Below the pieces are notes generated by a model. It had not been told where the DNA came from. It saw only the letters and a program-made list of their open reading frames with translations, and searched no databases. Below, piece by piece: positions 1 to 47,967 of a stretch of DNA of 64,000 bases. A program made the position numbers and the translations under genes. Within the stretch, counting starts at the first letter, position 1; every line of letters starts with the position of its first letter. Source of the DNA: Dictyostelium discoideum (taxonomy: Eukaryota); the NCBI GenBank assembly GCA_000004695.1, contig CM000151.3, positions 352,001 to 416,000 of the forward strand, read 5' to 3'.

Positions 1-2690
1 AAATCAATTAAAGAGATTGCTCAATCATTTTGTATATCAATAACTAAATTAAAAAAAGCAGAAATCATTGAAAAGATTAAATCAATAATCAAAAGAAAAA
101 GAGAATATGAAAAAGAACAAAAACAAAAACAAAATGTTAATTCATTTAATAAAATTATTAAATTGACAATTACAGATAATATTGAACCAATTGAAATATT
201 ATTTTGGAAATTATTTAGAAATAAAACAATTTATAAAAAGATATTCTCATTTATGGATAAACAATTCACAATAACATATGATTCAGTTTCATCAATAACA
301 AAACTAATAGATTCGAATCAATTTGGTATAATAAAAGAAAAAGTTATCAGAAATTGTAGATATTTATATTTCAATTCAAATCCATATTCAATTAATCTTA
401 CTCAAGATATGGAATATTTAGTGAAATTATTTTCAACGATTAATCAAGATGAAGATGAAGATGATGATGATGATGATTATTATAGATTCTATAGAAACTT
501 TTTTAAAATAGAGAATGATTATTACAAGTCATCTGGTGCTGTATCATGTGCACTAATTTTATCAAAGAAATTACAAGTTTTCAAATTATTTGTTAATGAA
601 TTCAATTATAAACCAACAAAAACAGATCTTTTGCATTCAATTTTTAATGGATCAAATAAATTCATTAAATATCTATTAGAATTAAATTCACCAAACTCAT
701 TTTTATTATTAGAAAAAGAGTGCACTGAAGTTATCAAAGATTTTAATCATTTCTATACTCATGGACTTGTTCAAAGAAATAGTTTTTACAAAGGATTGTT
801 ATGTTATTTAAATAGTATTGGTAATGATAATTATGATAGAAATCAGTACTTTGAATTATTAATAGATTGCGCTGATGAAGGAAATTATGAAATTAATGAA
901 AAATCAACATTAAAATCATTAATCACCACTGCTAGATTAATTTTAAAATTAAAAACACCGCCACCAGAACCGATAAAAGATGAAAAAGAAGATGAAGAAG
1001 AAAAAGAACTTTCAAAAAAGGTAATCAAACCAATTACAACAATTGATGAAATTGATAACTTTATAAAGAAAATTGATAAAGTTAATTTAAAATCATTATT
1101 AGATGATCCAATCATTTTCAATAATAATGAAATTAAAAATTTTATTAAGAAACTATTGATATTATCTCAACCGATATTTTATATCCTCCTAAGAATGAAG
1201 TTTGTAATTTAATTGAAATAGCATTTAGATTTGGAATTTATGAAATTTTAGAATCATATGTAACAAATAATAGAGAAATAAAGGAATATTTTGAAAGAGT
1301 ATTATCAAGAATCATTAAATATAAATGTAGAGATGATGATTTAAAAGTTTTATTTTCACATTGTTATGATAGAAATAAAAAGATTAAATTCATTGATCAA
1401 ATAGTTGGAAGAAACATTATACAAGCCGAACCTCAATTTCAGAGTTATTTCTTGTATTTACTTGTAATTCATAATGATATAGAGTTGGTAAAATATTATT
1501 CAAATAAAGTTGGTAATCACATACAAATACAGTATACCATATCATTACTTCCACCAACCTATTATATCGAATCAATAGAGACGTTAGAATTTTTATTTTA
1601 CAATCAATGTAATTACTTTAAAGATATTTTTTATAATGATTACATCAGTACATATTATAAAAATTTAGAATTATTAAAACATTTCGAATCATTATTCAAT
1701 AAATCAAAATCATTAAATCAATTAGGTAGTGGTAGTGTCAGTGGTAGTGATGGTAGTGATAGTAGTGATGGTAGTGGTAGTGGTAGTGGTAGTGGTATAC
1801 ATGCTTATAATGGCCTTGTTAGCTTTGTAATTGATGGATACTTTAAAGATAAAAGAAATTATTATTTGACATTTAAAAGAAATAATAATTATTCTGATTT
1901 TGTTAATCACTTTGCTTCAAATGCACAACTCTACTGTAATGATAAATTTCGTTTTGAACTTTTATTCACTACTTCAGATTTATCATTTAAACATTCAATC
2001 AACTTTCAAACATTAAGAAATTTAGTAATTAATGGACATGCTTTTGTGAAGGAGCCAAATAGTCAAACAGAATCTTATTCAAAGGAGCTTTTAAAATTTA
2101 TGGATTGGATATATACAAATTATAATAATGAATTGAAAAATGGTATATTTGGTTTCAAAACACAAAGATATAGATATCATTTACTCATTGCAATTGATAG
2201 CTTTGATTCCAACAACAACAACAACAGTATCGTTAATAAATACTTTAATGGTAATGAAGAAGAGAATGATGTTTATATTCAAAGATTAGGATTATTATTA
2301 AATGATGTCATCCTACTCACTCCATATTTATTTGAAATTAATAATTTGAAATTTTTAAATTGGTTCTTAACAATCATTCAAAAGTATCACAATTCTTCAT
2401 TATTAATTCCTACAGGTACATTTTATTATATTAAAAATATGGTTTTGATATTTGGGGATCATATTATACTTTATTCAAAATTACAAATACTTGAATACAT
2501 TCATCAAAATTTCAATTTCATTTTAAAGAAAGAATCAGATGGTGGAATATTAACTATTAAAGAATTAAAATCTTTTTTATTTTCATCACTTACCAGAGAT
2601 GCAGTTAAAATTTGTAAATTCCTTTTTCAATTCATTACCATTACAAAAAAAGAATTTGAAACATATTCAAATAAAAAATATAATAAATAA
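1..2690 (+). pseudogene. SAP-like-motif family paralog, 5' end outside window, frameshifted
   Basis: Frame 1 is open from nt 1 (KSIKEIAQSFCISITKLKKAEIIEKIKS...) to 1212. The homologous protein continues in frame 3 (IEIAFRFGIYEILESY...) to the stop at 2688-2690. Relative to intact paralog 6067..8898, about 80 nt are missing near 1150-1215, which causes the frame change. The gene has poly-Asn and an SGSGS repeat. Confidence 0.6.
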
Positions 2691-3092: not shown

Positions 3093-3134
<42 letters not shown>

Positions 3135-3406
3135 TGCACTTGATCAATATTTTTAATTTTTTTTTATTTCTTGCCCAGTTATTATTTAAAATAAAAAATT
3201 CATCTCGCTTGAGAAATACTATTTTTAATTTTTAATTTTTTCAAGTTACAACTGAAAAATTTAATTAAATTTGGCAATTTCTTATTTTTTAAGTTTTTGT
3301 CGCACTAAAAGAAGTTTTTTCATTTTTTTTTAAATTTTTTTTTAATTTTTTAATTTTTATTTGTTAATTTTTTCATTTTTTCTTTTTTGGACAGTATCAC
3401 ACAACA

Positions 3407-4592
3407 ATGAACAATAATATAGAGAATGATGATAGTATGGATGATGGTGAATTAGAGAAAAAGGATTTAAAATCAATTATAGAGATTGCTCAATCATATA
3501 GTATTTCAACAATTAGTTTAAATAAAGCAGAAATCATTGAAAAGATTAAATCAATAGTTAAAAGAAAAAGAGAATATGAAGAAGAACAAAAACAAAAACA
3601 AAATGTTAATTCATTTAATAAAATTAATAAATTAACAATTACAGATAATATTGAACCTACTGAAATATTATTTTGGAAATTATTTAGAAATATAGTAATT
3701 TATAAAAAGATATTCTCATTTATTGATAATCGATTCTCGTTAACATATGATTCAATGTCATCAATAAATAAATTAATTGATTCAAATCAATTTGGTATAA
3801 TAAAAGAAAAGGTTTATAGAAATTGTAGATATTTACTTTTGAATCCATTTACTATTACTTTAGAAATAGAATATTTATTGAAATTATTTTCAACAATTAA
3901 GAGTTGGTAAAATATTATTCAAATAAACTTGGTAATCACATACAAGCAAATGTTAACATATTATTACTTCCACCAACCTATTATATCGAATCAATAGAGA
4001 TGTTAGAATTTTTATTTTACAATCAATGTTATTACTTTAAAGATATTTTTTATAAGTTCAAAACGAAATTTATCATTACAGTAGAGTTGTGCATTTGAAA
4101 CAAAGTGATTTACAAAATCTGAATAATTCTTATTTCTTTTAAACATTTTGAATCATTATATCCACTGCTTTAGAATTATCATGTAAACATTCAATCAACT
4201 TTCAAACATTAAGAAATTTAGTAATTAATAGACATGCTTTTGTGAAGGAGCCAAATTATCAAACAGTATCTTATTCAAAAGAATTTTTAAAATTTATGGA
4301 TTGGATGTATACAAATTATAATAATGAATTGAAAAATGGTGGTTTCACTGAAGAAATACATCAATATCATTTACTCATTTCGATTGGTAGATTTGATTCC
4401 AACAACAACAATTACAACAACAACAACAACAACGACAGCATTAATAAATACTATAATGGTAACGAAGAAGAGAATGATGTTTATATTCAAAGATTACGAT
4501 TATTATTAAATAATGTTATCCAACTCACTCCTCATCTATTTGAAGTTAATAATTTTAAATTTTTAAATTGGTTATTAACATTCATTATTTAA
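3407..4592 (+). pseudogene. family paralog, internally deleted/fragmented
   Basis: The ATG at 3407 and the N-terminal 167 aa are colinear with paralogs, including the SAP-like motif and ILFWKLFRN. The remainder appears as three out-of-frame pieces (3904..4098, 4242..4592) with large internal deletions. Confidence 0.6.
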
Positions 4593-5521
4593 AAAGCAAA
4601 CATGGAGAACAAATCTTTTTTTTATTCATACTTCTTTTAATAATTTATTATATAATTTAATTATCTTGACAATATTTTCCACCCTGTGTTGTATCATATG
4701 ATTGTCCATTATTATTGCTATCATCAACCAATACACCATCATTTGAGGTTGAGTCACGATAACATTCCTCTATTTGGGTATTTTCTGATTCTTTGATTCT
4801 TTCAATGGTTTGTTGATCACGAGCATCTTGTCTGTTGGAAGAAGCATCTCTATTATTTGGATTACTATTGTTGGTTTCATCTCCTATTCCAAAGATATTT
4901 TGTACGACTTCAGCTCCCTTTTCAAAAACTACGTCTCTTACTAATAATAATTATTATTGTTAAGTTTAATAGTTAATAAATCTAATATTTAATGACTTGG
5001 AATTGAATATTTAATCCCATACTAATACATACTACCCATTTTTATTATTGATGATGATTTTATAGTTTAAATTATTTTGATAGAGGAATAAAATATATAT
5101 TTTTAATTTTAAATGATAAATTAATGAATGAATGTTTTTTTTTTATTTTTAATATTTTTTTTTTTTTTTATAAAATTAATAAAATAAATTTTCTTCGAAC
5201 TAATTATAATAATTAATTCAATTTTCATCACACAAAAGAAATTAACAGTTTGAAAATTTTCAAACGTCAAGTGTGGGTAAAATAAAAAAATACAAACAAG
5301 TAAAACAGATAAAAAAAAACTAACACTACTCAGGAGATATCTCCTGTGTTGTACAGTGTGTGGGGCGATGTTTTTTTTATTTATTTTTTTAATTAAAAAA
5401 AACTATTTGAATACCACAAAACTTAAAAATAAAGAAGCACTTGTGTGATGAATTTATCAGTTTTATGTTCAATTTTTTAGGGTATAAATAAAAATTGTAT
5501 TATGAAGAGTATTACATAAAT

Positions 5522-5567
<46 letters not shown>

Positions 5568-5786
5568 TAAAATTATTAATTAATTTAATTATTTATATAT
5601 TTGAAAAAAAAAACGATGTAATTTTTTAAAAAATTGGATGTTGAAATTGTTGAGGAAACGTTTTCATTGTGACTTATATAATTAGAAAAAAATACTTAGA
5701 TATAATAAAAAATTAAAAAAAAAAATTAAAAAAATATTCTATATTAAATAATAAATTTTTTTGTTATTTATTAATAATAAATTTTA

Positions 5787-5820
<34 letters not shown>

Positions 5821-6066
5821 TAAAAATTCATTTTTTAGAAAGTTATGAGTTTTATTTTGTAGTTCCGATAAAAAAAAAAAAAAAAACATTTGAGACCTGT
5901 CAATTATATTTGTTTTTATTTTTATAATTTATTTATTAAAGCACTAATAAATAAAAATAAAAATAAAATAAATAAAAAATAAAAATAAAATTAATAAAAA
6001 CACTTTTTTTTTTTTTCACATTTTCATTAATTTTTTTTTTTTTTTTTTGTAAGACAGTATTGCACA

Positions 6067-8898
6067 ATGAAAAATAATAATAAAAATAATAATAATAATA
6101 ATTTAGAAAATGAAAATGATATTGATGATAGTGAATTAGAAAAAAAGAGTTTAAAATCAATTAAAGAGATTGCTCAATCATATAGTATATCAACAACCAA
6201 TTTAAAAAAAGCAGAAATAATTGAAAAGATTAAATCAATAGTTAAAAGAAAAAGAGAATATGAAGAAGAACAAGAACAAAAAGAAAATGTTAATTCATTT
6301 AATAAAATTATTAAATTAACAATTACAGATAATATTGAACCCACTGAAATATTATTTTGGAAATTATTTAGAAATAAAGCAATTTATAAAAAGATATTCT
6401 CATTTATGGATAACCAATTCACAATAAGTTATGACTCAATAGATGATATATGTAAATTAGTAAATTCAAATCAAGTCAATTTAATAAGAGAAAAAGTTTA
6501 TAGAAATTGTAGATATTTACACTTCCATCCAAATCAGTATCATAACCATATTGCGGATATTCATTTTTTAGTGAAATTATTTTCAACAATTAAAGAAGAC
6601 GATTATAGATTCTATAGAAACTTTTTTAATGAAGAGAATGATTATTTTAGTTCACCAAATCATATAACACAAGCATCAATTATTTCAAAGAGATTACAAG
6701 TTTTTAAATTATTTGTAAATGAATTCAATTATGAACCAACAAAAAAAGATCTTCTATATTCAATTATTTCAGGTTCAAACAAATTCATTAAATATATATT
6801 AGAATTAAATTCACCAAATTCAGTTTTATTTGATAGAAAAATAGTTGATACTGATTTTAAAGATTTCTATGCTAAAGGATTTGGAAGTAATTATCCTACT
6901 AAAGAAGATAGTTTTTTCAAAGGGTTTTTATGTTTTTTAAATAACATTAACCTTGATGAAAATGATAGAGATCAATATTATAAGTTATTAATTGGTCAAT
7001 CCATTCATAACCCATATTCAGGTTATGGTTTTCAAATTAATGAAAAGTCAACATTAAAATCATTAATCACCACTGCTAGATTAATTTTAAAATTAAAAAC
7101 ACCATCCGCATCATACAAAGTACAATTTAAAGAAGAATGTTTCCCAAAAGTATTAAAAAAAATCGAAGCAGTCGCAACAATTGAAGAGATTGATAATTTC
7201 ATAAAGAAAATTGATAAAGTGAACTTAAAATCATTTTTAGATGATCCTATCAATTTTAATAATAGTGATGATAATAATGAAATTAAAAATTTTATAAAGA
7301 AATTATTAAAATTATATTATTTAAATTTTAGTATTGAACTATCAAATACTTTATACTTTTGTTATTATCATGAAGATTCCAATGATGATTATAAAGTTTT
7401 TCATTTTCATCATTTAATTGAAACTGCATTTAGATTTGGAAATTATGAAATTTTAGAATCATATGAAACAATCAATTGCCTACATTTTTTACCAGGAATT
7501 GGTCAAGATCATAGTAATCAAAATCACGATAGTCATCGTTATAAAGTTTTATTTTCACATTGTTTTAATAAAGGGAAAAAGATTAAATTCATTGATCACA
7601 TAATTCAAAGAACCATTCAACAACCAGAACCTGGATTTCAAATTTATTTCTTGTATATGCTTGTAATTCATAATAATATAGAGTTGGTAAAATATTATTC
7701 AAATAAAGTTGGTAAAAATATACAAGTAGAATCTATTGGAAGATTAACTCCACCAACCTATTATATCGAATCAATAGAGATGTTAGAATATTTATTTTAC
7801 AATCAATGTAATTACTTTAGAGATGTGTTTTTTGATGGCAAAAAAAGTACATTTTATAAAAATTTAGAATTATTAAAACATTTTGAATCATTATTAAATA
7901 AATCAAAATTAGGATGTGGTAGTGGTAATTGTAGTGGTATGCATTCTTATAATGGTCTTGTTAGCTTTATAAAAGGTATGGGCTTTGGAAGTGGTATATA
8001 TGGCTCTTTTGAGTATAAATCAAATAAGAATTATGTAGATTTTGCAAAACACTTTGCTTCAAATCCACAAATTTACAAGGGTTATACATTTGATTACGAG
8101 CATTTGTTTTTATTATTTACTACTCCTGTATCATCATCATCATCATTTTCATCTAAAATTTCAATTAACTTTGAAACTTTAAGAAATTTATTAATTAACG
8201 CATATTCTTTTGGAAGAAGCCCAATCTTTGAAAGATCAAAACCAACACACACACAACACCATTATTCAAGGGAATATTTAAAATTTTTTGATTGGATGTG
8301 TATAAATTATAGTCATGAAATTGGAGATCGAAGTTGTAGATTCTTGTATACAAATGAAGAAAGATATAAATACCATTTACTTATTGCAGTTGATAGAATA
8401 GATCTTGACAAAGATAATTATTATAATGGAGGTAATGATCAAGAGGAAGGAAATATTAGTGTTTATATTGAAAGATTGAATTCCTTAACATATGATGTCA
8501 TATATTTCACCCCATATTTATATGAAATTAATAATTTTAAATTTTTAAATTGGTTTTTAACAATCATTGAAAAGTATCACAATTCCAAATCAACATCATC
8601 TCATGATAAATCTATTATGGAGTCAATGGTTTTCACATTTATGGAATATATTACATTACATTCAAAATTACAAATACTTGAATACATTCATCATAATTTT
8701 CATTTCATTTTAAAGAAACAATCAGATGGTGGAATATTAAATATTGGAGAATTAAAATCTTTTATATTTTCATCACTTAAAAGAGATTCAATTAAAATTT
8801 CTAAATTCCTTTTTCAATTTATTACCATCACTAAAAATGAATTTGGTAAATATTCAAATGAAAAAACAAAATCATATTTTAAAAATATGTTTAAATAA
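6067..8898 (+). CDS. intact member of lineage-specific SAP-like-motif protein family (943 aa)
   Basis: True ATG at 6067. The single long ORF is colinear with the other paralogs: N-terminal LEKKSLKSIKEIAQSYSISTTNLKKAEIIEKIKS, KRKREYEEEQ, ITDNIEPTEILFWKLFRN, and the C-terminal block TPYLYEINNFKFLNWFLTII...GGILNI.ELKSF...FLFQFITITKNEF. The gene is intronless. Confidence 0.75.
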   Translation: MKNNNKNNNNNNLENENDIDDSELEKKSLKSIKEIAQSYSISTTNLKKAEIIEKIKSIVKRKREYEEEQEQKENVNSFNKIIKLTITDNIEPTEILFWKLFRNKAIYKKIFSFMDNQFTISYDSIDDICKLVNSNQVNLIREKVYRNCRYLHFHPNQYHNHIADIHFLVKLFSTIKEDDYRFYRNFFNEENDYFSSPNHITQASIISKRLQVFKLFVNEFNYEPTKKDLLYSIISGSNKFIKYILELNSPNSVLFDRKIVDTDFKDFYAKGFGSNYPTKEDSFFKGFLCFLNNINLDENDRDQYYKLLIGQSIHNPYSGYGFQINEKSTLKSLITTARLILKLKTPSASYKVQFKEECFPKVLKKIEAVATIEEIDNFIKKIDKVNLKSFLDDPINFNNSDDNNEIKNFIKKLLKLYYLNFSIELSNTLYFCYYHEDSNDDYKVFHFHHLIETAFRFGNYEILESYETINCLHFLPGIGQDHSNQNHDSHRYKVLFSHCFNKGKKIKFIDHIIQRTIQQPEPGFQIYFLYMLVIHNNIELVKYYSNKVGKNIQVESIGRLTPPTYYIESIEMLEYLFYNQCNYFRDVFFDGKKSTFYKNLELLKHFESLLNKSKLGCGSGNCSGMHSYNGLVSFIKGMGFGSGIYGSFEYKSNKNYVDFAKHFASNPQIYKGYTFDYEHLFLLFTTPVSSSSSFSSKISINFETLRNLLINAYSFGRSPIFERSKPTHTQHHYSREYLKFFDWMCINYSHEIGDRSCRFLYTNEERYKYHLLIAVDRIDLDKDNYYNGGNDQEEGNISVYIERLNSLTYDVIYFTPYLYEINNFKFLNWFLTIIEKYHNSKSTSSHDKSIMESMVFTFMEYITLHSKLQILEYIHHNFHFILKKQSDGGILNIGELKSFIFSSLKRDSIKISKFLFQFITITKNEFGKYSNEKTKSYFKNMFK

Positions 8899-9018
8899 AT
8901 AAATAATAAATTAAATTACTTTTTTTAAAAAATTGAATTTCTTATTTTGGAAATTGTGATTGAAAATAATTGTTTAATTTTATTTATTTATCTGATTTTA
9001 TTTTATATTTTTTTTTTT

Positions 9019-9240
9019 TTACCACTTCACTATCAGCGCTACCACCACAACTTCAATCAGCGCCGCCACCACTTCTACTATAAGCGCCACCACCACTTCT
9101 ACTATCAGCACTAACACCACAACTTTAATCAACGCTACCACCACAACTTTAATCAGCGCTAACACCACTTCTACTATAAGCGCCACCACCACTTCTACTA
9201 TCAGCACTACTACTTCTATTAGAACTACCACTATAAACAC
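9019..9240. repeat. 24-bp minisatellite (about 9 units: cagcgctaccaccacaacttcaat variants)
   Basis: Direct tandem repetition is visible in the sequence. A plus-strand frame would read (ISATTTSTIS)n. Confidence 0.8.
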
Positions 9241-9761
9241 CCCATTTCTATTATTATACTGCAGTTACTGTCACTGTTATTATCACTGTTGCTATTACTA
9301 TTATATTCAGTAATACGATTCCCAATGCTATTTTAAATAATTCTTTAATGTTATTACCAAAATGATGCTCATAAATTAATGATTTTAATAATTCTCTGAA
9401 TCTTTTTAACCAACATTTTAGTGAAAATGAAAAAAAAAAAATAAAAAAAAATAAAAAAAAAAAAAATAACCACAAGTCAGCAAAATTATAGTGCGTTTTG
9501 AGCAAATTAATCATAAAAAAAAAAATTAAAAAAACTCACCCAAGTCAAACAAAAAAAAAAAAAAAAAAAAAAAAAATAAAAAAAGGGTTTAAACTCGCCA
9601 TAAAATATTAAAAAACTTTCTAAGTTAATTATTATGAATATTTTTTTTTTATTTTAAAAATTTAAAACTATACAATAAAAATATTTTATACTAAAATTTT
9701 TTTGAAAATAAAATAAATTGAATTTTATTTATTTATTTATTTTTATTATTATTATTATTAA

Positions 9762-9810
<49 letters not shown>

Positions 9811-9836
9811 AATAAAAAAGGCAACTAAATGGCCGA

Positions 9837-10700
9837 TTACTCTGAATCAATATCAATTATTGTTGGTGATTCACCAATAATTACACAATCATCATCATCA
9901 TCACTGAATATGATGGATAAGTCATCTCGAAGCTCAATCATCAAGCCTATAAAGCATTTGACCACCTTTTGATCATTTGTTATAAAAGGTGGTATATTAT
10001 TGATGATTGAGTGACACTTTCCCATTTTTGTGAGAATAAATTCTGATGATTCTTTATACTGATCATAGTGAAGTGAAGCGAGGTGATTACTGAATACATG
10101 GATATCGCCACATTTATAACAACTCTTGTTTCTATTTGCATATACTAACTTTGTCATTATACCAATAATATAAACAATTGAGTTAACACATAATAATGTT
10201 TTATCTTCTTTAAGATTGTTAAAATAACCCAACACACTATTGTACTGGTCTACATCTGAGATCAATTTACTCATCATAAATGACCCTTTGGTGCCTTCAG
10301 ATTTTGAAAAAATCGAAGAATCACCACAAAGGCATTTTTTTGTTTGTGATGAGGAGGTTGTTGGGGACATAAATGATGAATGTGATGAAGTTGAGGTAAT
10401 TGTTGTTGTTGAAGAAGAGGATGTAGATATTGATGGTTTGGTTAATGAAGAGGTGGTAAATGTTGTTGTTGTGGTGTTTGTTGTGGGTTTCAAATACTCT
10501 TCATTACTTGATTGGTTGTTTTCAAACAAAAGGTGCATGGAGCCAATATTTACAACTTCAACTTCTTTTTCTTCAATGTTATCTGGTGATAGGATGGCCT
10601 TAAGCTCATCACTGATCTTACCAGCAAAACTTTTTTCACCCACGGTTCTGATTTTATCTATAAAAAAATTAATAAATAAATTTATTATTATTATTATTAC

Positions 10701-10749
<49 letters not shown>

Positions 10750-11197
10750 ATTTATATATAAAATTATATATTTACCAAGTCTCAATCTCTTTTTATCTCT
10801 AATGTCTTTTTCTTCTTTTTCTTTTTCAATTTGTTTATCCAATTTGAATTTGTCCTTGTCCAATTTTAATTTCTCTTTTTCAAGCTTAATTCTAAGCTTT
10901 TCTTGTTGTTCTTGAATTTTTGATTGATTTCTTTTCTCCCTGTCCGAGAAAATTCTTTCGGTCTCTTTTGCTATATATAAAAAAAAATTAATAAATTATT
11001 ATTATAAGTATAATTATCTATATTATAAACAAATTACCTTTTAACATTGTTTTATATTCCTTTGGATGAAAGGAACAACTCAAACAAATTTCATATCCTG
11101 GGCATGGTTGGCATGGTGTAGCACCCCTTCTTTTTTGGCTGGTACAATTGCTATTGAGTTTGTGACATGATTTACAATATAGTTTGGTTGAGTCCAT
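9837..11197 (-). CDS. hypothetical 3-exon gene: Cys-rich N-terminus, coiled-coil, C2H2-like C-terminus
   Basis: Exon 1 is 11197..11038 (ATG at 11197; MDSTKLYCKSCHKLNSNCTSQKRRGATPCQPCPGYEICLSCSFHPKEYKTMLK; GTAATT donor). Exon 2 is about 10961(or 10969)..10776, encoding a K/E-rich coiled-coil (...KLRIKLEKEKLKLDKDKFKLDKQIEKEKEEKDIRDKKRLRL) with a GTAAAT donor. Exon 3 is 10657..9837 (TAA at 9839-9837) and contains CYKCGDIHVFSNHLASLH. The exact intron-1 acceptor and phase are unresolved. The two introns are AT-rich, about 70 and 118 nt. Confidence 0.5.
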
Positions 11198-11835
11198 TAT
11201 AAAATAATGAAAAATGATTTTAAAAAATAATTAATAAATAAAATAAATATGAAAAAAAATAATAGATAAATAAAATATGAGTGAATAAAATAATTAAAGT
11301 TTTAAAAAAAACAATTTAAATACTTAAAATATTTCATTGTAACTGAGTTATCTTTGTTTTGATAAAAGATTTTATTTTTATTTTATTTTATTTTTCTTTT
11401 TTTAATTTAAAAAAAAGTGGGGGAAAATATCTCCAACTGTTTTAAATTTAATTTTTTGAATATGGGGTTAGAATCGGTAATATAAGTAGAGCTGCTCGTG
11501 AAAATGGTTTGACCAGAAATCAACTCAATTATTACCGTAGAGATATCAAAGATAATAGAATTAGACAATCCCATGGCGGCTCCAGATCTCCACGTACATT
11601 TACTACAGAACAGTATGAACTCTTGGTGGCAACTGTGGTAGCAATGGTTAATGTCCGACCTAATCTCACAATGAGGGAGATCGCCCAAGAAATTAACTCA
11701 GATCAAAATAGTATTTTTTATAAAAAGGTCAACAAATCGAGGATATGTTCAATATTCAAAGAATTGAAATGGAATTACCACTCTCCAACCTATAAACAAG
11801 TAAGTAAAAAAGTTTTAATATATTAAATAACTAAC

Positions 11836-11843
11836 TATTTGTT

Positions 11844-11907
<64 letters not shown>
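11836..11907. repeat. poly(T) tract of about 72 nt inside the transposase intron
   Basis: A homopolymer is visible in the sequence. Confidence 0.9.
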
Positions 11908-11908
<1 letters not shown>

Positions 11909-12172
11909 GAAAATAAATACAAAACTGAAAATTTATTAAAATTATTTTATTTTAATACAATAATTTACAATACTGATTGGAAAAACATTTATTTTTTAGA
12001 TGAATGCTCATTTTCTTCTAGAGGTATTATATTTTATTATTTTAGATGAATATAAATATTTATACTAATTTTTTTTTTTTTTTTTTTTTTAAAAATATTT
12101 TTAATTAAATAATTGTCTTTCTTTCCATCCATTCTGAATTCCACTATTAACATTATAAGGTAATTATATAAC

Positions 12173-12285
<113 letters not shown>

Positions 12286-13066
12286 TTAAAAATAATTAAT
12301 TAAAACTAATAAGGTTTTTTATTAGAATTAAGGAGATCTAAAGCTGTTGGACCGATTGGAGAGCCGGTTTATGTTACCAATAGCACCAGCATTTCTGAGA
12401 CCTACAATGGGTTTTTCACCATCAGTTTGGATGATTGTTTGTATAAAATCCGTGATAAAACCAATAATACTGAAGACTTCTTTCAATATGTTAGAGAACT
12501 TTTGGAAAGTGGATTTTGCAAGCCTGGTTCATTATTGGTAATGGACAATGCTCCAATTCACGGTGGTATCGAAGCTTTAAATGCACTATTTGAATTGTTT
12601 AATCAATATTCCGTTCAATTGATATTTCTTCCTTCCTATTCTCCAGAGTTGAATCCCATTGAGCGTTTCTTTGGCTATATCAAGAACCATTTCTACCGAG
12701 AACGTAATTCCCATGGGTCCTTCCTTGATGAGATTATTGACACTATCGATAATTCTCTCATTAAAAACAAAGAACTGTTCATTGGATTTTATCGCCAAAG
12801 CCTAAACTTCTGGTCTGAAAAAAAAAGAAATCAATACCAAAGAAAAAGGTGAAAAAAGAAAAAATAATAAAAAAAAAAAAATAATAAAAAAAAAAAAACA
12901 AATAAAAAAAAAAAAAAAAAAAAAAGTGTTTGATTTGAAAAATTTAAAAAAAAAAATTAAAAAGTGTTTGATTTGGCTAATCCGCACAATAACAAATCTT
13001 CAACCCCTCTCAAAAAAAAAAAAAAAATGAAAATAAAAAAAAAAAGTGAAAATAAAAATAAAAATA

Positions 13067-14283
13067 CCAACCAAAAAAAACAGATCTTTTGCATTCGATT
13101 GTTTCAGGTTCAAATAAATTCATTCAATATATATTAGAATTAAATTCACCGGATGCAGTTTTATTTGAAAATAGTTGATACTGATTTTAAAGATTTCCAT
13201 TCCAGAGGATTTAGTAAAAACTATCCTACAAAAAAAGATCGTTTTTTCAAAGGGTTTTTATGTTATTTAAATACCATTAAAGTTGATGACAATAATAGAT
13301 CAATATTATCAATTATTAATTGGTACATCCATTCGTAATCTATATTTGGATAATTGTTTTGAAATTAATGAAAACTCAACATTAAAAACATTAATCACCA
13401 CTGCTAAATTAATTTTAAAATTAAAAACACCACCATCACAATCATCACCATCTTTAGATTTAAAAGTAAAAGAAAAAGTAGAACAAGAAAAAAAAGAAGA
13501 GGAAGAAGGAAAAAAAGAAAAGGTTTTTCCAAAATTTATAAAAAATATCAAAGCAGTTGAAACAATTGAAGAAATTGATAATTTCATAAAGAAAATTGAC
13601 AAAGTGAACTTAAAATCATTTTTAGATATTCCAATCAACTTCAGTAATAGTGATAATAATGAAATTAAAAATTTTATAAAGAAATTATTAAAATTATATT
13701 TTTCAAATTCTGATACTAAAGTATCAAAAATTTTATATTTCTGTTATTACCATGAAGAATCCAATTATGATTATAAAACTATATTCCCCTCTACTCTTCA
13801 TTTGATTGAAACTGCATTAAGATTTGGAATTTATGAAATTTTAGAACCAAAAAAAACAATGGGGTGTCATAATTTCTTACCAAAAATCGGTCAAGATTCT
13901 AATTATCAATATTATAATAGTCATCGTTATAAATTTTTATTTTCACATTGTTATGATAAAGAGAAAATGATTAAATTCATTGATCGTATAATTCAAAGAA
14001 CCATTCAACAACCTGAACCTGGATTTCAAATTTATTTCTTGTATATGCTTGTAATTCATAATGATATAGAGTTAGTAAAATACTATTCAAATAATGTTGG
14101 TAAACATCTACAAATATATTCTCCTCGGGAAATATTTCCACCAACCTATTATATCGAATCAAAAGAGATGTTAGAATATTTATTTTACAATCAATGTAAT
14201 TACTTTATAGATGTTTATTTTAAATCTTACAAAAGTTCATATTTTAAAAATTTAGAATTATTAAAACATTTCGAATTATTATT
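13067..14283 (+). pseudogene. family paralog, 5' portion (5'-truncated, frameshifted), interrupted by transposon
   Basis: Homology to 6067-paralog coordinates about 6733 onward begins near 13067. There are two overlapping frames (13153..13338 and 13283..14305). Homology ends at ...LELLKHFELLF immediately before the transposon TIR at 14284. Confidence 0.65.
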
Positions 14284-14398
14284 TGTTGTAGGGAATTTTC
14301 CATAAAATTTCACTACAGTAGCGTAGTGAATTTTATTATTTAATTTCACTACAGTAGCGTAGTGAAAAAAAAAAATCACTGACCTTAAATTTTTTTTT
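14284..14398. repeat. left TIR of Tdd-4-like element
   Basis: Reverse complement of 18012..18127, with only about 2 mismatches in the parts compared. Confidence 0.8.
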
Positions 14399-14486
14399 TT
14401 TTCAAAAAACAAATAAAGTTTATTAAATTGAAATTTTATTTTTTGTTTTAATTATTATTTTATTTATTTTTATTATAATTATTGTT

Positions 14487-14526
<40 letters not shown>

Positions 14527-14667
14527 CAATTTTTTTTTTTTAAATTTTTTTCAATTTTTATTTGTTTATTAAATTGTAATTTTATTTTTTGTTTTAATTA
14601 TTATTTTATTTATTATTATTGTTAATTTTTTTTTTTTTTCAATTTTTTTTTTTTTATTTTATTTTTA

Positions 14668-14976
14668 TTAATTTATTTTTATTAACTCCCTGAGTTGTTC
14701 AATTGCTTGATTTACCATATCACTGTAAACACTGCACACAATTGAATTTTTTCTAGCTTTGTTACCTCTGGTGCATTTGATGTTTTTGCATTTTCCTTTG
14801 TATACAAAAAAGTCCAAATATAATTCGTTTTCTATTACAGTTTTTACACAATGTTGGTGAAATTGTTTTGATTTTAATTTTAATGCTTCTAACATCATAT
14901 TTGGATTTTTAACGATTAAAGCATCACCACTATTTACATATAGTACTTTGGCTGCTTTTTCGAGGAATTTAGTCAA
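14668..14976 (-). CDS. small ORF near the transposon 3' end (possible terminal exon or second gene)
   Basis: A 102-aa ORF begins at TTG. An upstream ATG ORF (MIEELIDSIKLLRNLAIEYGNEE) lies in another frame. Confidence 0.3.
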   Translation of the reverse strand: MTKFLEKAAKVLYVNSGDALIVKNPNMMLEALKLKSKQFHQHCVKTVIENELYLDFFVYKGKCKNIKCTRGNKARKNSIVCSVYSDMVNQAIEQLRELIKIN

Positions 14977-15302
14977 ATTTTCCTCTGAATCTAACTATTC
15001 TTCATTGCCATATTCAATGGCTAAATTTCTTAAGAGTTTTATCGAATCTATTAATTCTTCGATCATTCTTTTTTTTTGAAATTTTTTTTTATTTTGTTTT
15101 TTCAATTTTTTTTTTTTATTTTGTTTTTTCAATTTTTTTTAAGTTTTATTTTTTTTTATTTTTTTTTATTTTTTTTAACAAATGTAATTTTTTTTTATTT
15201 TTTTCAATTTTTTTTTTTTTTTAATTTTTAATTTTTTTTTTTTTTTTTAATTTTTTGTGTTGATTTGTGTTTTTTTTGTTTTTTTGATTTGGCCACTTGT
15301 TT

Positions 15303-16289
15303 TTATTTTCTAATTTCCCCATACCCCCTTCTATTAATTGCAACCAAATCAAGTTCTAATTTTTGTGTCCTTGTTAACTTTGTTTTTGCAACTTTTTTTG
15401 AAGGTATCACATTAACGATTTTTCCTATTGATGGTGATTTGGAAGGTGATTTAAATGGTGATTTAAAAGGTGAATTGGAAGGTGATTTAAATGGTGAATT
15501 GGAAGGTGAAATGGATGGTGATTTGGAAGGTGATTTAAATGGTGATTTGGAAGGTGATTTAAATGGTGATTTAAATGGTGAATTGGAAGGTGAAATGGAT
15601 GGTGATTTGAGAGGTGATTTGGATGGTTTAGAATGTGATTTTAAAGGAGGTTTATTAACAATTGGTATCTTATGAGGACGGCCTCTGAGACGTTTAACAG
15701 TTGTTACTATACCACTACCAGATTGTGGTATAGTATACGATGGTATTATTTGCACTTGAGGTATTGGTGGTACTATTTCTTTTAAATTCATATCCTTTCT
15801 CAAACAATTCATTAAATTTGGCGCTGTTGGATTATTATTTAAAAATGGGAGTATTTCTTCTTGTTCCATTTCATTATTGAGTTTGTGTTGAAATGGATTA
15901 TCGTTAATGATAGGTGGAATATTTGATGGATTGTTAAGAGCATCTTCCAAAACCCTAAATGGATCATTTTGTGTTACCAATTGATGCAAGTTGAAATTGG
16001 ATAAATCCTTACCAAGATTTTTAATAAACTGAACCAGAAATTCAATAACTTTCCCATCATTATTTAAATAAAGACCAGAAGTAAAAGAATCAATATCTTT
16101 TTGTATGTTTGGCGATGTTCTAAAAATATCAACTGTTGATTGTTTATAAAGAACCAACTTGTTACCTCCTACAAAACCAGAGTATAAACCTTTTTTTTGA
16201 AGGCTATTGATTCCATCTTCCAAAAATTCAAGTTTATAAAGTTGTTTAGTGTCTTCCTGTATTACCTTATGAATTTTACACAAAATCAA
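15303..16289 (-). CDS. transposon protein C-terminal region with AT-hook and (K/F)SPxK repeats
   Basis: A 328-aa ORF carries RGRPHK (AT-hook) and about 20 SPSKSPFKSP-type repeats. The plus-strand ORF 15265..15675 (GDLEGDLNG) is its antisense. Confidence 0.5.
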   Translation of the reverse strand: MILCKIHKVIQEDTKQLYKLEFLEDGINSLQKKGLYSGFVGGNKLVLYKQSTVDIFRTSPNIQKDIDSFTSGLYLNNDGKVIEFLVQFIKNLGKDLSNFNLHQLVTQNDPFRVLEDALNNPSNIPPIINDNPFQHKLNNEMEQEEILPFLNNNPTAPNLMNCLRKDMNLKEIVPPIPQVQIIPSYTIPQSGSGIVTTVKRLRGRPHKIPIVNKPPLKSHSKPSKSPLKSPSISPSNSPFKSPFKSPSKSPFKSPSKSPSISPSNSPFKSPSNSPFKSPFKSPSKSPSIGKIVNVIPSKKVAKTKLTRTQKLELDLVAINRRGYGEIRK

Positions 16290-16359
16290 TATTTTCTATT
16301 AGAATTAAATATAAAATTTGTTAATTATTACTGTTTCATATATTATTAATCTTTATGTT

Positions 16360-16629
16360 TTAATTACTTACATTATTTTTTTTAATTTCTAGAAAGAGTA
16401 CAGTATCACCAACTTTCAATCCCTTTGGTGGTTTTGAATTCCATTGATTTTGGTAACTTGTGAGATTTTCAAGAATAATAGCTGTTCTTTCTTCTTTTGA
16501 AACATCTGAAACACCAATTGATTGAGAGTCTTGTTCTGATTGAACATTAATAAACAAAGGAACAATACCAACAGCTTGAGATGGTTTCATTTTAATTGTT
16601 CTTGTTTTTGTATTATTGTAATCATACAA
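16360..16629 (-). CDS. transposon integrase exon: C-terminal domain
   Basis: The frame is continuous with upstream exons after a short AT-rich intron. It contains KVGDTVLFLE, an SH3-like integrase C-terminal motif. Confidence 0.45.
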   Translation of the reverse strand: MYDYNNTKTRTIKMKPSQAVGIVPLFINVQSEQDSQSIGVSDVSKEERTAIILENLTSYQNQWNSKPPKGLKVGDTVLFLEIKKNNVSN

Positions 16630-16703
16630 AGCTTGTTTTAATAGTTCAGAAAGAGACCTAGAAGTACCATCAAGAAAACTAAAATTTATTTATAAATGAT
16701 TAA

Positions 16704-17247
16704 TTAATAAACATATCGATAATTTATATTGTTCACAATATCATACTCTTGTTGTTTTAATTTTGAGATCCTCTCCTTGATAGTTCGATTCAATCTTTCT
16801 ACCATACCTTGAGTTGTTGGTGTACGAGGAGCTCCATGTGCTGACTTGGAGCCTGGAAAAAGTTTTAGGAATTCTTTTTGGACTTTGTTTTTAAATTCAC
16901 GTCCATTATCGCAGTGCCATACTTTCACAGGTTTGCCAAAGTACGTGAGAGCCAAAAAATTGTATATGGGAACTGTTCTCTTTGTTGTCAAACATCTAAA
17001 AAATAAATGATAATTAAAATAAAAAAAGAAAACTAATAAATTAATAAATAAAAAATAAATACCTTCCAGTAGCAAATTTTGTAAAAGAATCTATGCATAG
17101 AATAATGTAAACAACATCGGTGTCGTACGGTTGTACAGAGTCATATTGGATAAGATCATCTAGTTTAGTTAGTATCTTTTCATTATCATCATCGTATGTA
17201 ACTTTTTCTTTATGTTCACCTTTAATTGATGTTAAATCATAAACCAA
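16704..17247 (-). CDS. transposon integrase exons: rve catalytic core
   Basis: 17041..17247 reads ...DVVYIILCIDSFTKFATGR (first D). 16704..17075 reads ...VWHCDNGREFKN...HGAPRTPTTQGMVERLNRTIKERI (second D and the E of the DDE). The overlapping ORFs imply an intron of about 30 nt or a frame junction near 17041-17075. Confidence 0.65.
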
Positions 17248-17350
17248 TCTTGAGTATTCCTCGGTATCTACAATTGGAGCAAAATCCTTTGTTATACCTA
17301 TTAATTTATTTAAATTATTAAAAGAGTTTTAATATAAAAGTTACAAAACA

Positions 17351-17596
17351 TCATATAAAAATGATTGATACCAAACCTTTTATTCTATTTCGTTGGCAAA
17401 TGTCACACGTATCTACTGCATCAGATACAAAAGAATACAATCCCATATTATAATATTTAGTCTTGTAGTTCCCATAGGTTGCATCTCTTCCTATATGACC
17501 TTTATGCATTTCTTCCCAGAGTGATACCATTCTATAATCATTAATTACTTCTAAACACACTTCTTTTGATATATTTCTATCTCCGCCACAATTCAT
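17351..17596 (-). CDS. transposon integrase exon: N-terminal HHCC zinc-binding region
   Basis: ATG at 17596. The exon reads ...WEEMHKGHIGRDATYGNYKTKYY...VDTCDICQRNRIKG (H-x3-H...C-x2-C). Confidence 0.6.
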   Translation of the reverse strand: MNCGGDRNISKEVCLEVINDYRMVSLWEEMHKGHIGRDATYGNYKTKYYNMGLYSFVSDAVDTCDICQRNRIKGLVSIIFI

Positions 17597-17815
17597 GACT
17601 TTTTTTTCAATTCTAAATAATTTTTCTTTTCTGTTTCTGTTTTTTATTGGTCAGAATTTAAAAAATGATTGTGTTATTGTAAGGAAAAATATTTACTCAT
17701 CATGTAAAAATTTATAATTTTTATGTTTAGTATTTTCAAAATTATTATCTTCAATAAATTTTAAATAATTTATAATTTCATTTATTTTATCTTGTTTCAT
17801 TTTGGGAAAATGAAA

Positions 17816-17850
<35 letters not shown>

Positions 17851-18011
17851 TGTTGGGGAAAAAAAAAAAAAGTTTTGGCGCAAAAAAAAAAAAAAAAATA
17901 AAATAAAAAAAAAAAAAAATAAAATAAAAAAAAAAAAAAATAAAAAAACTTATATAGAACTAATAATCAAATAAAAGATAATAATTTAATAAACTTTATT
18001 TGTTTTTTGAA

Positions 18012-18127
18012 AAAAAAAAAATTTAGGGTCAGTGATTTTTTTTTTTCACTACGCTACTGTAGTGAAATTAAATAATAAAATTCACTACGCTACTGTAGTG
18101 AAATTTTATTGAAAATTCCCTACAACA
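18012..18127. repeat. right TIR of Tdd-4-like element
   Basis: See the left TIR. Confidence 0.8.
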
Positions 18128-19153
18128 TTATTGGATATATCAAAATCAGTAAATCAATTGGGTGATAGTTGTGGTGGTAGTATTGGTATTTGTAGTGGTA
18201 GAGGTATTCATTCTTCTAATGGTCTTGTTAGCTTAATAAAAGGTATAACCTTTGGAATTGGTAGTAATGATTTTTTCGACTTTAAAAGAAATAAGAATTA
18301 TGCAGATTTTGCAAAACACTTTGCTTCAAATCCACAAATTTACAATAGTGATAAATTAGATCACAATGAATTGTTTTTATTATTCACTACTGCTGTATCA
18401 TCATCATCATCATCATTTTCATCTAAAATTCCAATTCACTTTGAAACATTAAGAAATTTATTAATTAATGCAAAAGCTTTTGGAAGAAAACCAATCATTG
18501 AAAGAACAAAACCAACACCCATACAATGCCATTATTCAAAAGAATATTTAAAATTTTTGGATTGGATGTATATAAATTATAATAATGGAATTGAAGATCA
18601 AGATCAATTCTTAGGTATGATTAAAGAAAGATATAAACACCATTTACTTATTACAATTGATAGATTAAATCTTAACAATAACAATTATTTTGATGGTAAT
18701 GAAGAAGGAGATACAATTTATATTGAAAGATTAGGTTTCTTAACAAATGATGTCATACGTTTCACCCCATATTTATATGAAATTAATAATTTTAAATTTT
18801 TAAATTGGTTTTTAACAATCATTCAAAAACATCACAATTCTATGCCAACAACCGAACATCATATTTTATGTATTAAAGAAATGATTTACACATTTATGGA
18901 ATATATTATATCAAATTCAAAATTAGAAATACTTGAATACATTCATCAAAATTTTCATTTCATTTTAAATAAAAAATCAAATGGTGGAATATTAAATATT
19001 AAAGATTTGAAATCTTTTTTAATTTCATCACTTAATAGAGGTTCAATTAAAATTTCTAAATTCCTTTTTCAATTCATTACCATCACTAAAAATGAATTTG
19101 AAAAAAATTTAAATGAAAAAACAAAATCTTATTTTAAAAATATGTTAGAATAA
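18128..19153 (+). pseudogene. family paralog, 3' portion downstream of transposon insertion
   Basis: It resumes at the TSD copy and is colinear with the C-terminal third of the paralogs (...GLVSLIKG...FASNPQIY...TPYLYEINNFKFLNWFLTII...), ending at the stop at 19151-19153. Confidence 0.7.
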
Positions 19154-25671: not shown

Positions 25672-28080
25672 GGTTTTTTTTTTTTTTTTGATATAAATAA
25701 ACTATTGTAGTATAAAATTAGTATGTTATTTTTATTTATTTATTTTAGGTTTTTTAGTTTTTGTGAATTTAAAATGGTATGTTATTTTAGATTAGGTAAT
25801 TAATAATTAATTGGTGGTGTAATTGTTGGAATTGGTTCATTTGTGTTTATGCTCCATTCTTTTTTAAATTTTTTGATGGTTTCGGACCATTGGGTTTCTT
25901 TTTGAGTTTTTATGAGGTTGTTTTTAATTGAGTATTGGTTAAAGTTTGATAATGTTCTTGAATATTCCAATCTTATTAGCTTGTGCCATTTTGATTTTAA
26001 TATATCATAATCTAGTGTTGTGTTGTTTATTTGGTTGTTCCAATTATCAATTGATTGAGTTATATTGATGTCAAATAATGATTTGAATAACCATATCCAT
26101 ATTTGGTGAATAACTAATGAGATTATGTTCCAATATGCATGTGTTCTGACTAGATCAAGATTTGTGTTTATATAATTCCAGTTGAACCTGTATTTTTTAT
26201 ATTGTGCGTTTTCTGCAAAATGAAAATTAATATTGATAGTTGGATCTGGTTTAAATGCTTTGTTGTTTGTTTGTGGTTTATAAATGAGTGTGTATAATTT
26301 TGTTGTTTGGTTTTTTGTTAGTGACCAGTTTTTGTTTCCATTGCAATTTTTATATATAAAATATTTTAATTTGTCGTGGTTTATGAAGTAGATTGTGTGC
26401 TGACAATTGAAAAACAAATGACCATAGGGATCATTATTCATTTCATTGTTGCAAATGGGGCAAACTTTGTTGAGTAGATGATTAATCGGAAGACATCTAG
26501 CATGGAATCTTTGCATTGTATCACGGCCTTTTGGATCTTTTAGCTTTTGAATTTTGACAAATAGTTGGTCGTATGTGTATTTCCATAATAGTTGTATTGA
26601 TTGTTGGTGCGAAGTAAGAAGTAGATCTGAATATTTCTTTCCAATATAGTCTTTTGATTTACATTGATGATTGTTGAGTATTGTCGAGTAGATTTCTTTG
26701 AGTGTTGGTGGTAGTGAAATATTATTTGTTGTTAATGTTTGAGAGGTTTGGTTTTTTATTAATATTGGTTAAAGGGTTTGAACTTTATCTTTTAGATGTC
26801 CAATTTGAGTTGCATAGTTTTCCCATTCTTTTTTTATTTTTATAAGGTATGGAGAAGAGATTGATTTGTTAATAATTTGATCCATCCAACTTATCATGTA
26901 TATTGAATTGTTTGCAGATTTATGCATTTGTAAAAATCTGTTGTATATCCAAATCTTTTGAGCAACTTGTCGTAATTGTATATTCCACATACCCCAACCA
27001 CCTTCTTTTAATGGTTTTAATGATCTATCATAACACATCAAAGGTATTTTTGCACGTGAATGGATGGTTGATGTGTTATTTTCAATGGAATTGGTATTGA
27101 GAGTTGGTGATTCAGAATTTGCGGGAGAATTCATAAACCATGAGATTAATTTATTAATTTGAATTTCTTCATCTTTTGTAAATTCTTCAAGGTATGATAA
27201 ATATGTTATTGGTGATAGTGAGTAGGTGTTTATGATGGTTGTTTTTGTTTTTAATGTTGTGCCACTAGTTTTCCATAGTACTAATGATTTGATCAGTGTT
27301 TTCATTGTTTCTGGTAATTTCCTATGTAAACCATTATGATTAAAGAAATAGCCAATGAACTCTTTCTGATTGATCTTTTTTGGTTATTGGAATTCTTTTT
27401 GATTGTGGAATGTTGTTTATTATGTGTTTATCAGTGATTTTGTGGTGGTTGATTTCTATTATTGCACTTTTGTCAAAATTTAATGATGATGATGTTGAAG
27501 CGCAGAAATTATTTGAAATGTTTGATTGATTGTTGTTGTTGTTCGTAGGTGATGTTGTATGTTGTAGAGTCGTCTGCAAATTGGGTAAATTTAATTTTAA
27601 TTTGTGGTAATCCAATTATTGTATTGTCTGCATTTATTGTTCTTGCTAATATTTCAATTACAATTACAAATAGAGTGGCTGAGATTGGGTCACCTTGTTT
27701 TACACCTCTTTTAATATCGAATTTTCTGGTCGTTTTACCATTAATTGAAATTTTTGCTTGTGGAGTCAGATAATAGCTTGTGGATTAAATTTATTAATTT
27801 TATTGGTATACCAATATGAATTAATGTTCTTTTAATACTATCGTGAGAGATAGAATCAAATGCTTTGAAGAAGTCAAATAGTGTGATGATACCAGGGAGG
27901 TTTTTAGATTTGAGGTAGTTGATTAATTCATTGATGTTGATGATGTTGTCTATGATGAATCTGTGGGGTACGAAACCAGTTTGGTTGATGTTGATGATCT
28001 GACTACAGTGAGAATTGGTTTAACTTGGTTTAAATGATTAATGTAGAATGCATTTGTAACGTGCATTCTACATAAACATA
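25672..28080 (-). mobile_element. 5'-truncated TRE3-type non-LTR retrotransposon (copy 2)
   Basis: Minus-strand ORFs 25800..26516 (CCHC: FHARCLPINHLLNKVCPICNNEMNNDPYGHLFFNC) and 26769..27305 are colinear with the C-terminal part of copy-1 ORF2. An RT fragment lies at 27330..28020. A T17 run at 25672-25688 is its likely poly(A) tail (plus-strand poly(T)). Confidence 0.6.
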
Positions 28081-28084
28081 AGAA

Positions 28085-28735
28085 AAGATGGATATTATCA
28101 CCTGGTACTGCAAATGACCATGAAGCAATCAATATTATCAATCATTTAATAACTAATCACAATAACACATCAATCAATCAATTCCCAAACTGGTCAAAAG
28201 TAAAATCAAAAATTATTAAAACTCTAAAAAACTATCAATATAACAAAGACAAACAAACTCAACGTGCAAAACAAATACTATTAGAAAAAGCAGCAAAATT
28301 CAAACATCTTGAAGAACAATGCATCGCTGAATACAACATTATATGTAACAAAAACAAATTACATCAAAACCACACAAACATATTAAAAAACATATAAATG
28401 GAGAAATACCTAGCAAGTATCTATCAGCAATACTAAACAAAAGATCAAAAGATGCAAAAATTGCATCAATCTAATATGGTAACATCATTACATCCGACCC
28501 CGACCAAATTGAAAATGCGTTTGTTGAATTCTACACAAATCTATATAGCTTACAAATATGTTGTCCAATTACTCACCAGCTCATGCTAAACACATGGCCC
28601 ATCATAAAAAATGAATATTGGAATGGTTTAGACTCACCATTTATACAAGATGAAGTTGAAGCTGCAATTAAAACCTGTAACCCCAACAAATCACCCGATA
28701 CAGTTGAAATCTCCTGCGATAATAGATACATGTTG
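28085..28735 (+). mobile_element. inverted TRE3 ORF2 fragment (EN-RT linker region), frameshifted
   Basis: The plus-strand translation ...IENAFVEFYTNLYSLQ...NEYWNGLDSPFIQDEVEAAIKTCNPNKSPDTVEIS matches copy-1 ORF2 ...IEEEYVKYYSNLYDYKEDDPLSHYEMLENW...EILEVIKQLNPHKSPGPDGIP. The junction with the minus-strand RT fragment carries a 10-bp hairpin (gtagaatgca/tgcattctac, 28046-28074). Confidence 0.5.
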
Positions 28736-28739
28736 GGAT

Positions 28740-29017
28740 TGGTTTGGTATTGGGTTTGTTGAGTGGTTGTGGAGAAGTGTTTGTAGTGAAGTTGCATATG
28801 AATTCTTTTTGATGGTATTATTTGATGCTGGTGCGTAAATTCCAAGAATACCAATTGGTAATTGATTTGGAAATATAACGTTTGCTAAAATAACTCTACC
28901 ATCAATTGTTGATATGTGTTTGAGTTTGAGTGTGTTTGGGTTATGGTTAATGATGATTACACCATTTCCTCGTTTGGTGACAGAGATGATGTGATCGGGA
29001 AAATCATGTTTAAGTTG

Positions 29018-29020
<3 letters not shown>
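28740..29020 (-). mobile_element. TRE3 endonuclease-domain fragment
   Basis: The minus-strand translation ...IDGRVILANVIFPNQLPIGILGIYAPA matches copy-1 EN ...IEGRLIISDILIKDTTTRILAIYAPA. Confidence 0.5.
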
Positions 29021-29095
<75 letters not shown>

Positions 29096-29549
29096 TGGAT
29101 TAACAAGATTGATATATGTCCATCTGTGTTAATACGAGTTTTATTTAATATTTATTTAAAGGCTTATCGTTTAAGCTGAAGGGTTATTTTAATCATATGA
29201 ATTGATCAAAAGATATAATATTTGGGAGAGATGATTCTGGAATACAATAGTAATTAGCTGTTGTTTTTCTTAGCTTGATCGTTGAAGTGAGAAGGATCTT
29301 AGGATCTTTGAAGTTATTATGGTCTTTTGCAGATAAGTTTTTCAGATCTTTTGCTTTTTTGATGTATTCTAGAGTGGCCAATTTGTGCCATTTCTTTAGA
29401 AGGGAGCTGTATGATAGTGATTCATCTGTTAAAGGATCTTTACTGTATATTTGATTGCAAATTCAAATTCAAATGTTGTGGAGGATAAGGGCCATTAAGT
29501 TTCTATATGCGAATGATCTGGTTAGATCATAGTCTATTGCTTTATATTT

Positions 29550-30278: not shown

Positions 30279-30296
30279 ACAAACAAACTCATCTCA

Positions 30297-34116: not shown

Positions 34117-34365
34117 CTCGATGGGATTCCTTTGAATCGGCGATTTGGTAAGTTAGATCTGTAGATCGTGGTGGATTGGTGATTTTTTTTGAAAGATTGG
34201 TTAAAATTGACCGAGATTAAGGATAGAAAAGGATGAATTACTTTTCACGTGTATCTTGTATCCTCTTGATCGCGGTACGGTTTTTTTTTCTCTTTTTATT
34301 GAAGTAACATTTTTCACGTGTATCTTGTATCCTCTTGATCGCGGTACGGTTTTTTTTTTAAGTTT

Positions 34366-34397
<32 letters not shown>

Positions 34398-34412
34398 CAG
34401 CAACTTAAAAAG

Positions 34413-35379: not shown

Positions 35380-35410
<31 letters not shown>

Positions 35411-37412: not shown

Positions 37413-40448
<3,036 letters not shown>

Positions 40449-41192: not shown

Positions 41193-44354
<3,162 letters not shown>

Positions 44355-44913: not shown

Positions 44914-47967
<3,054 letters not shown>

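Follow-up and report, generated by a model that had tools for sequence, protein, structure and literature searches.

We analysed a stretch of 64,000 nucleotides (nt) of Dictyostelium discoideum DNA (NCBI GenBank assembly GCA_000004695.1, contig CM000151.3, positions 352,001 to 416,000 of the forward strand), which is called the window below and whose positions are counted from its first letter. The G+C content is 19-26% across most of the window. Here a DNA element that carries an integrase-type transposase gene interrupts one member of a gene family arranged in tandem, and we regard this element as almost certainly a full-length copy of Tdd-4, a D. discoideum DNA transposon of the Ginger2/TDD group. 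It is bounded by terminal inverted repeats (TIRs) and flanked by a target-site duplication (TSD), which are located with the two parts of the host gene as follows:

13069..14283, plus strand: host gene copy, part 5' of the insertion; two frameshifts (near 13169 and near 13299), frame open from 13283
14279..14283, no strand: left copy of the TSD, TTATT, found as a single copy in the empty-site homologues
14284..18127, minus strand: complete Tdd-4 element, 3844 bp, with TGTTG...CAACA ends and the transposase gene on the minus strand
14284..14429, plus strand: TIR on the 3' side of the gene, 146 nt
17983..18127, minus strand: TIR on the 5' side of the gene, 145 nt
18128..18132, no strand: right copy of the TSD, TTATT
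18133..19153, plus strand: host gene copy, part 3' of the insertion; DDB_G0271156 in the AX4 annotation

At the left junction, the host sequence ...TTCGAATTA TTATT is joined to TGTTGTAGGG of the element, and at the right junction CCCTACAACA is joined to TTATT GGATATATC. The two TIR arms match over 145/146 nt (98% identity, with 2 mismatches and an indel of a single T) and diverge abruptly thereafter; a weaker inverted similarity of 81% extends to about 243 nt through A/T runs. The figure of ~115 bp given for the TIRs in a preliminary description of this DNA was thus too short, although its size of 3844 bp and its duplicated 23-nt palindrome in long TIRs were correct. In copies of the element at two other loci, the TIR limit likewise falls at 145 nt and the two end-specific differences are identical. 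The two mismatches, each tied to one end and found again in copies of other strains, are therefore a feature of the family and not decay of this copy. The palindromic motif, TTTCACTACAGTAGCGTAGTGAA, has 8-bp arms separated by a 6-nt spacer and occurs four times in the window, twice per arm at a distance of 36 nt and nowhere else; 100 shuffles gave no match to it. The four copies are:

14308..14330, plus strand: 23-nt motif copy 1 (8-bp arms, 6-nt spacer)
14344..14366, plus strand: 23-nt motif copy 2
18045..18067, minus strand: 23-nt motif copy 3
18081..18103, minus strand: 23-nt motif copy 4

By analogy, these palindromes are probably candidate binding sites for the transposase. An Rfam scan of the element returned no match.

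The preliminary description had also stated that both junctions and a 5-bp TSD are visible and that the allele preceding the insertion can be reconstructed. This is borne out: when the element and one TTATT are deleted in silico, the open reading frames (ORFs) 13283-14283 and 18133-19153 fuse and restore a single open frame of 674 codons. A match of the 5-nt flanks alone would have a chance of about 0.0036 at the local base composition. Uninterrupted relatives give the state of the empty site. Three paralogues in the window (1549-1825, 7749-7996 and 50931-51102) read through it as GAATCATTATT. In the strain GCA_054859385.1, two homologues at 89-90% nucleotide identity cross the insertion site, where the closer of them has CGAATTATTATTGGA. 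When each is aligned to the two flanks, the alignments share precisely the duplicated bases. A single ATTATT is found at the site in all five uninterrupted homologues, so that the lack of a TSD copy at an uninterrupted site, which the preliminary description named as fatal to its claim, is not what we observe. Because the family forms a rapidly evolving tandem array, the genes of the second strain are called homologues here; they may or may not be strict orthologues.

The transposase gene was modelled as six minus-strand exons running from an ATG at 17800 to a stop at 15303 and encoding a protein of 715 amino acids. They are separated by five GT-AG introns of 60, 79, 67, 68 and 76 nt. Alternative choices of splice site exist; the chosen set fits both the published TDD4 protein and Tdd-5-type homologues. 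The junctions of introns 2, 3 and 4 reproduce the block of the TDD4 protein that is available in print, and those of introns 1 and 5 are supported by alignment to the Tdd-5-type homologues. The exons are:

17697..17800, minus strand: exon 1, with the ATG at 17800; junction supported by the Tdd-5-like homologue P0005
17377..17636, minus strand: exon 2, with the HHCC finger at 17506-17396
17063..17297, minus strand: exon 3, with the first catalytic Asp at 17238-17236
16747..16995, minus strand: exon 4, with the second Asp at 16910-16908 and the Glu at 16799-16797
16372..16678, minus strand: exon 5
15303..16295, minus strand: exon 6, with the AT-hook RGRP at 15686-15675, 16 tandem SPxx units at 15617-15426 and the stop at 15305-15303

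The protein contains an HHCC zinc finger (H79, H82, C112, C115), followed by a DDE catalytic triad (D142, D229, E266) and by a tail in which the AT-hook core RGRP (residues 589-592) precedes 16 consecutive SPxx units (residues 612-675). The preliminary description, which had announced an HHCC and DDE integrase spread over several short-intron exons and an AT-hook/SPKK tail, holds on each of these points. Matches among solved structures were all retroviral integrase catalytic cores, whose catalytic Asp and Glu align with D229 and E266; these two residues align in the integrase cores of RSV, HIV-1, HTLV-2 and PFV. The Tdd-4 transposase is related to the integrases of retroviruses and of Ty3/Gypsy elements, with which it has in common the order of zinc finger and DDE core, the TG..CA ends of the element and a short duplication of fixed length. 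In contrast to them, it has an insertion of about 35 amino acids after the first Asp, and its C-terminus is made of the AT-hook and SPxx units instead of a GPY/F module or a chromodomain. Tdd-4 also lacks a reverse transcriptase and long terminal direct repeats, and therefore moves as DNA.

Tdd-4 is catalogued in Repbase and dictyBase and is the founding member of the Ginger2/TDD group. It was reportedly first described by Wells in 1999, in an abstract said to give TIRs of 145 bp, 15 SPxx units and six introns, the sixth of which is a non-canonical AT-AA intron spliced alternatively around the SPxx region. Compared with that account, the present copy has one SPxx unit more, and the AT-AA intron was not placed from the genomic sequence beside the five GT-AG introns. 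Tdd-5 of D. discoideum (AF298206) reportedly goes back to Gloeckner et al. in 2001. With respect to the known Tdd-4 (Repbase TDD-4), the element has the same 3.8-kb size, TG..CA ends, 145-nt TIRs and 5-bp TSD and the same multi-exon HHCC and DDE integrase-like gene with a tandem SPxx tail, with no difference of substance. Every feature on which the match to Tdd-4 had been proposed (3.8 kb, long TIRs, 5-bp TSD, integrase-like ORF) agrees.

Alignment to the published element was approximated at the protein level, using the block of zinc finger and DDE domain printed for TDD4 (XP_629668) and TDD5 (AF298206) in Additional file 1 of Bao et al. 2010 (PMC2836005). Over this printed block, the window protein is identical to TDD4 at 256 of 256 residues. 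In Table 2 of PMC2836005, the reference TDD-4 copy has the coordinates AAFI02000006.1(356458-352615), which cover 3844 bp of the minus strand, and a TIR length of 260 bp. Since the span and the strand are those of the window element, the two are probably the same copy. Identity to AX4 proteins is 100% (DDB_G0271438) for the neighbouring gene at window positions 6067-8895 and 99% (DDB_G0271156) for that at 18143-19150, so that the window is DNA of an AX4 chromosome or cannot be told apart from it. The text of PMC2836005 gives 5-bp duplications and TGTNR termini for these elements, and TGTTG fits the latter; the protein combines H2C2 and DDE domains without GPY/F or YPYY, no GP[YF] or YP[YF][YF] motif being found in its 715 residues. 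Animal Ginger2 elements (PMC2836005) resemble Tdd-4 in their TGTNR termini, H2C2 and DDE domains, lack of GPY/F and YPYY and A/T-rich targets; they differ by duplications of 4 bp, against 5 bp for Tdd-4 and Tdd-5. A literature search on thug-S and DDT-A elements yielded nothing relevant.

The assignment was weighed against the sister family Tdd-5 or a new Tdd-like family, and against a remnant of a long terminal repeat (LTR) retrotransposon. Tdd-5 is like Tdd-4 in architecture, has a similar size and the same 5-bp duplication, and its terminal 17 nt are nearly identical (TGTTCTAGGGAATTTTT in the locus L004). However, the zinc finger and DDE block that is 100% identical between the window protein and TDD4 reaches a mere 53.5% with TDD5 over the 254 aligned residues of the printed sequence, and we rejected a Tdd-5 identity on this ground. 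Overall identity is no more than 43% for the Tdd-5-type proteins P0004 and P0005, and the ends of a Tdd-5-like copy (L005) contain another internal repeat sequence. Membership of Tdd-5 or of a new family is thus highly improbable. For an LTR remnant of the Skipper or DGLT-A type, in which an integrase would lie between inverted A/T-rich repeats arisen by chance, speak the retroviral/Ty3 type of the integrase and the many weak inverted repeats that a very A/T-rich genome yields. Against it, the ends are inverted, 98% identical over 145 nt and include palindromes that are not A/T runs and that shuffling failed to produce, and the same ends bound other copies elsewhere, each with its own 5-bp duplication. 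Moreover, neither the ORF list nor Pfam revealed a frame for reverse transcriptase, RNase H, gag or protease within the element, its sole Pfam matches being integrase domains. This explanation is extremely improbable.

No observation contradicts the assignment to Tdd-4, although some profile scores fall short. Of the two profiles that the preliminary description had proposed to run, Integrase_H2C2 scored 32.1 bits, above its Pfam cut-off of 25.5, but rve, at 26.6 bits, fell just under its gathering threshold, as did rve_3 at 22.7 bits. The shortfall is due to the insertion after the first catalytic Asp, which is common to Tdd-5.

To compare the window element with other genomic copies, we examined several further loci. 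In the strain GCA_054883475.1 (L002), a Tdd-4 copy is 99.9-100% identical over 2.5 kb of unique sequence and is flanked by the TSD TCATC. At L004, a Tdd-4 copy with an internal deletion, in which element positions 1-1281 are joined to 3354-3844, has the TSD ATATA; it lies at 7300-9041 of this locus, nested within a Tdd-5 element (3200-11000, TSD CCTTT). A 3'-truncated relative at L003 is 89.5% identical. Near-identical copies with their own 5-bp TSDs thus occupy different sites in different strains, which argues for recent activity of the Tdd-4 family, as read from these sequences.

The window copy itself appears structurally complete, in agreement with the preliminary description. Whether it is mobile is a separate matter, since it could be intact and yet silenced, or defective in a way invisible in the sequence. 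Activity is not readable from sequence, and residue 314 is Lys here and in the printed TDD4 block, against Thr in three other Tdd-4 copies. In addition, RNA-seq data covering 19 Tdd-4 units in AX4 showed transcripts raised 25-fold only upon removal of rblA, the retinoblastoma orthologue (PMC3386910), which implies repression in normal cells. On the other side stand the open reading frame, the canonical sites in all five introns, both ends, which are intact and match those of other copies, and the recent movement of the family to which the copies in other strains point. Immobility of this copy is therefore possible but, on balance, unlikely.

A frame of about 400 nt (15066-14668, minus strand) lies downstream of the integrase stop, before the 3' repeat. 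Its translation is MIEELIDS...GNEE up to a TAG, after which another 108 codons follow. The frame comprises two parts:

14995..15066, minus strand: short ORF MIEELIDSIKLLRNLAIEYGNEE ending in TAG; last exon in the AX4 gene model DDB_G0292352
14668..14994, minus strand: continuation of this frame beyond the TAG, 108 codons; found in Tdd-4 copies only

The AX4 gene model reaches the short ORF through a GT-AG intron (15324-15068) and takes the first 23 codons of the frame as its last exon. The frame and its in-frame TAG are kept in every Tdd-4 copy examined. No counterpart was found in the Tdd-5-like copy L005 or in the Tdd-like copy L006, and the sole match at L004 sits inside the nested, deleted Tdd-4. 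The frame has no Pfam match. A word-indexed protein search returned only Tdd-4-derived gene models, to which an exhaustive HMMER search added just chimeric models and two translated tandem repeats that we judged spurious. An AlphaFold single-sequence model had a pLDDT of 42 and was uninformative. Selection on the frame is not visible because all copies are too similar. That it encodes an accessory protein specific to Tdd-4, or a read-through extension, is in our view doubtful.

The host of the insertion is indeed a family gene, as had been proposed, but this copy has damage besides the insertion. Homology with full-length relatives begins abruptly at 13069, the first ~215 codons being missing. 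Together with the two frameshifts, this loss makes the host copy pseudogene-like independently of the Tdd-4 insertion. At least 8 further paralogues or fragments lie within the 64 kb, forming a large, fast-diverging tandem family:

841-2660, 3871-4586, 6067-8895, 37431-40439, 41403-44363, 45100-47961, 49484-51113, 51994-54633: paralogues or fragments of the interrupted gene

The family proteins, which are about 900 amino acids long and bear the name 'Rho termination factor N-terminal domain' proteins in some sources, have not been characterised further. Window positions 11509-12852 (plus strand), immediately upstream of the truncated gene, hold pieces of a transposase of the Tc1/mariner-IS630 type; among them, the ORF 12427-12852 matches Pfam DDE_3 at 56 bits. 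A search for the ends of this Tc1-like fragment gave only A/T-run repeats.

Other mobile or possibly mobile sequences were noted in the window and at the loci of the additional Tdd-4 copies. A block of 30-40% G+C at 26000-34486 contains a non-LTR retrotransposon, with an ORF at 30297-32873 (minus strand) that matches RVT_1 at 118 bits. A tRNA-Val(AAC) gene at 34412-34486 (minus strand) has this retrotransposon on its downstream side, a layout as expected of a tRNA-gene-targeted element of the TRE3 type. Just beyond this tRNA gene, an ORF of 642 amino acids at 34778-36706 (minus strand) matches Asp_protease_2, an aspartyl protease domain, at 42.9 bits; it may be a host gene or may derive from a retroelement. 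The Tdd-4 copy at L002 carries three insertions of one ~757-bp element (3112-3867, 5299-6056 and 7108-7867), a striking number within a single 3.8-kb element. The three are 98.5-100% identical to one another, have the inverted ends CACAGCAAAGAAAAA...TTTTTTCTTCGCTGTG and look like a miniature non-autonomous transposon; this element is absent from the window. At L004, another incomplete Tdd-4 end, in which the 23-nt motif occurs three times, lies at positions 232-528.

The sequence itself shows the ends, gene and duplication; the mechanism that follows is proposed on the model of retroviral integrases and other DDE transposases. The transposase would bind the element ends, probably at the paired 23-nt palindromes, and would expose a 3'-OH at the terminal CA. 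Both ends would then be joined to target phosphates staggered by 5 bp, and repair of the gaps would yield TTATT on both sides. In this way Tdd-4 would have interrupted a member of the tandem family that is also 5'-truncated and frameshifted. We know of no direct demonstration that Tdd-4 is excised (cut and paste), as opposed to being integrated only.

The element is already known and its insertion is an ordinary finding, which adds little to what has been described of Tdd-4 since 1999. Its value is practical: a spliced eukaryotic transposon is recognisable from raw sequence, and an example annotated with its ends, TSD, exon map, catalytic residues and empty site is usable as a positive control. 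The Tdd-4 family is of general interest because, among cut-and-paste enzymes, that of this DNA transposon is most closely related to retroviral integrases.

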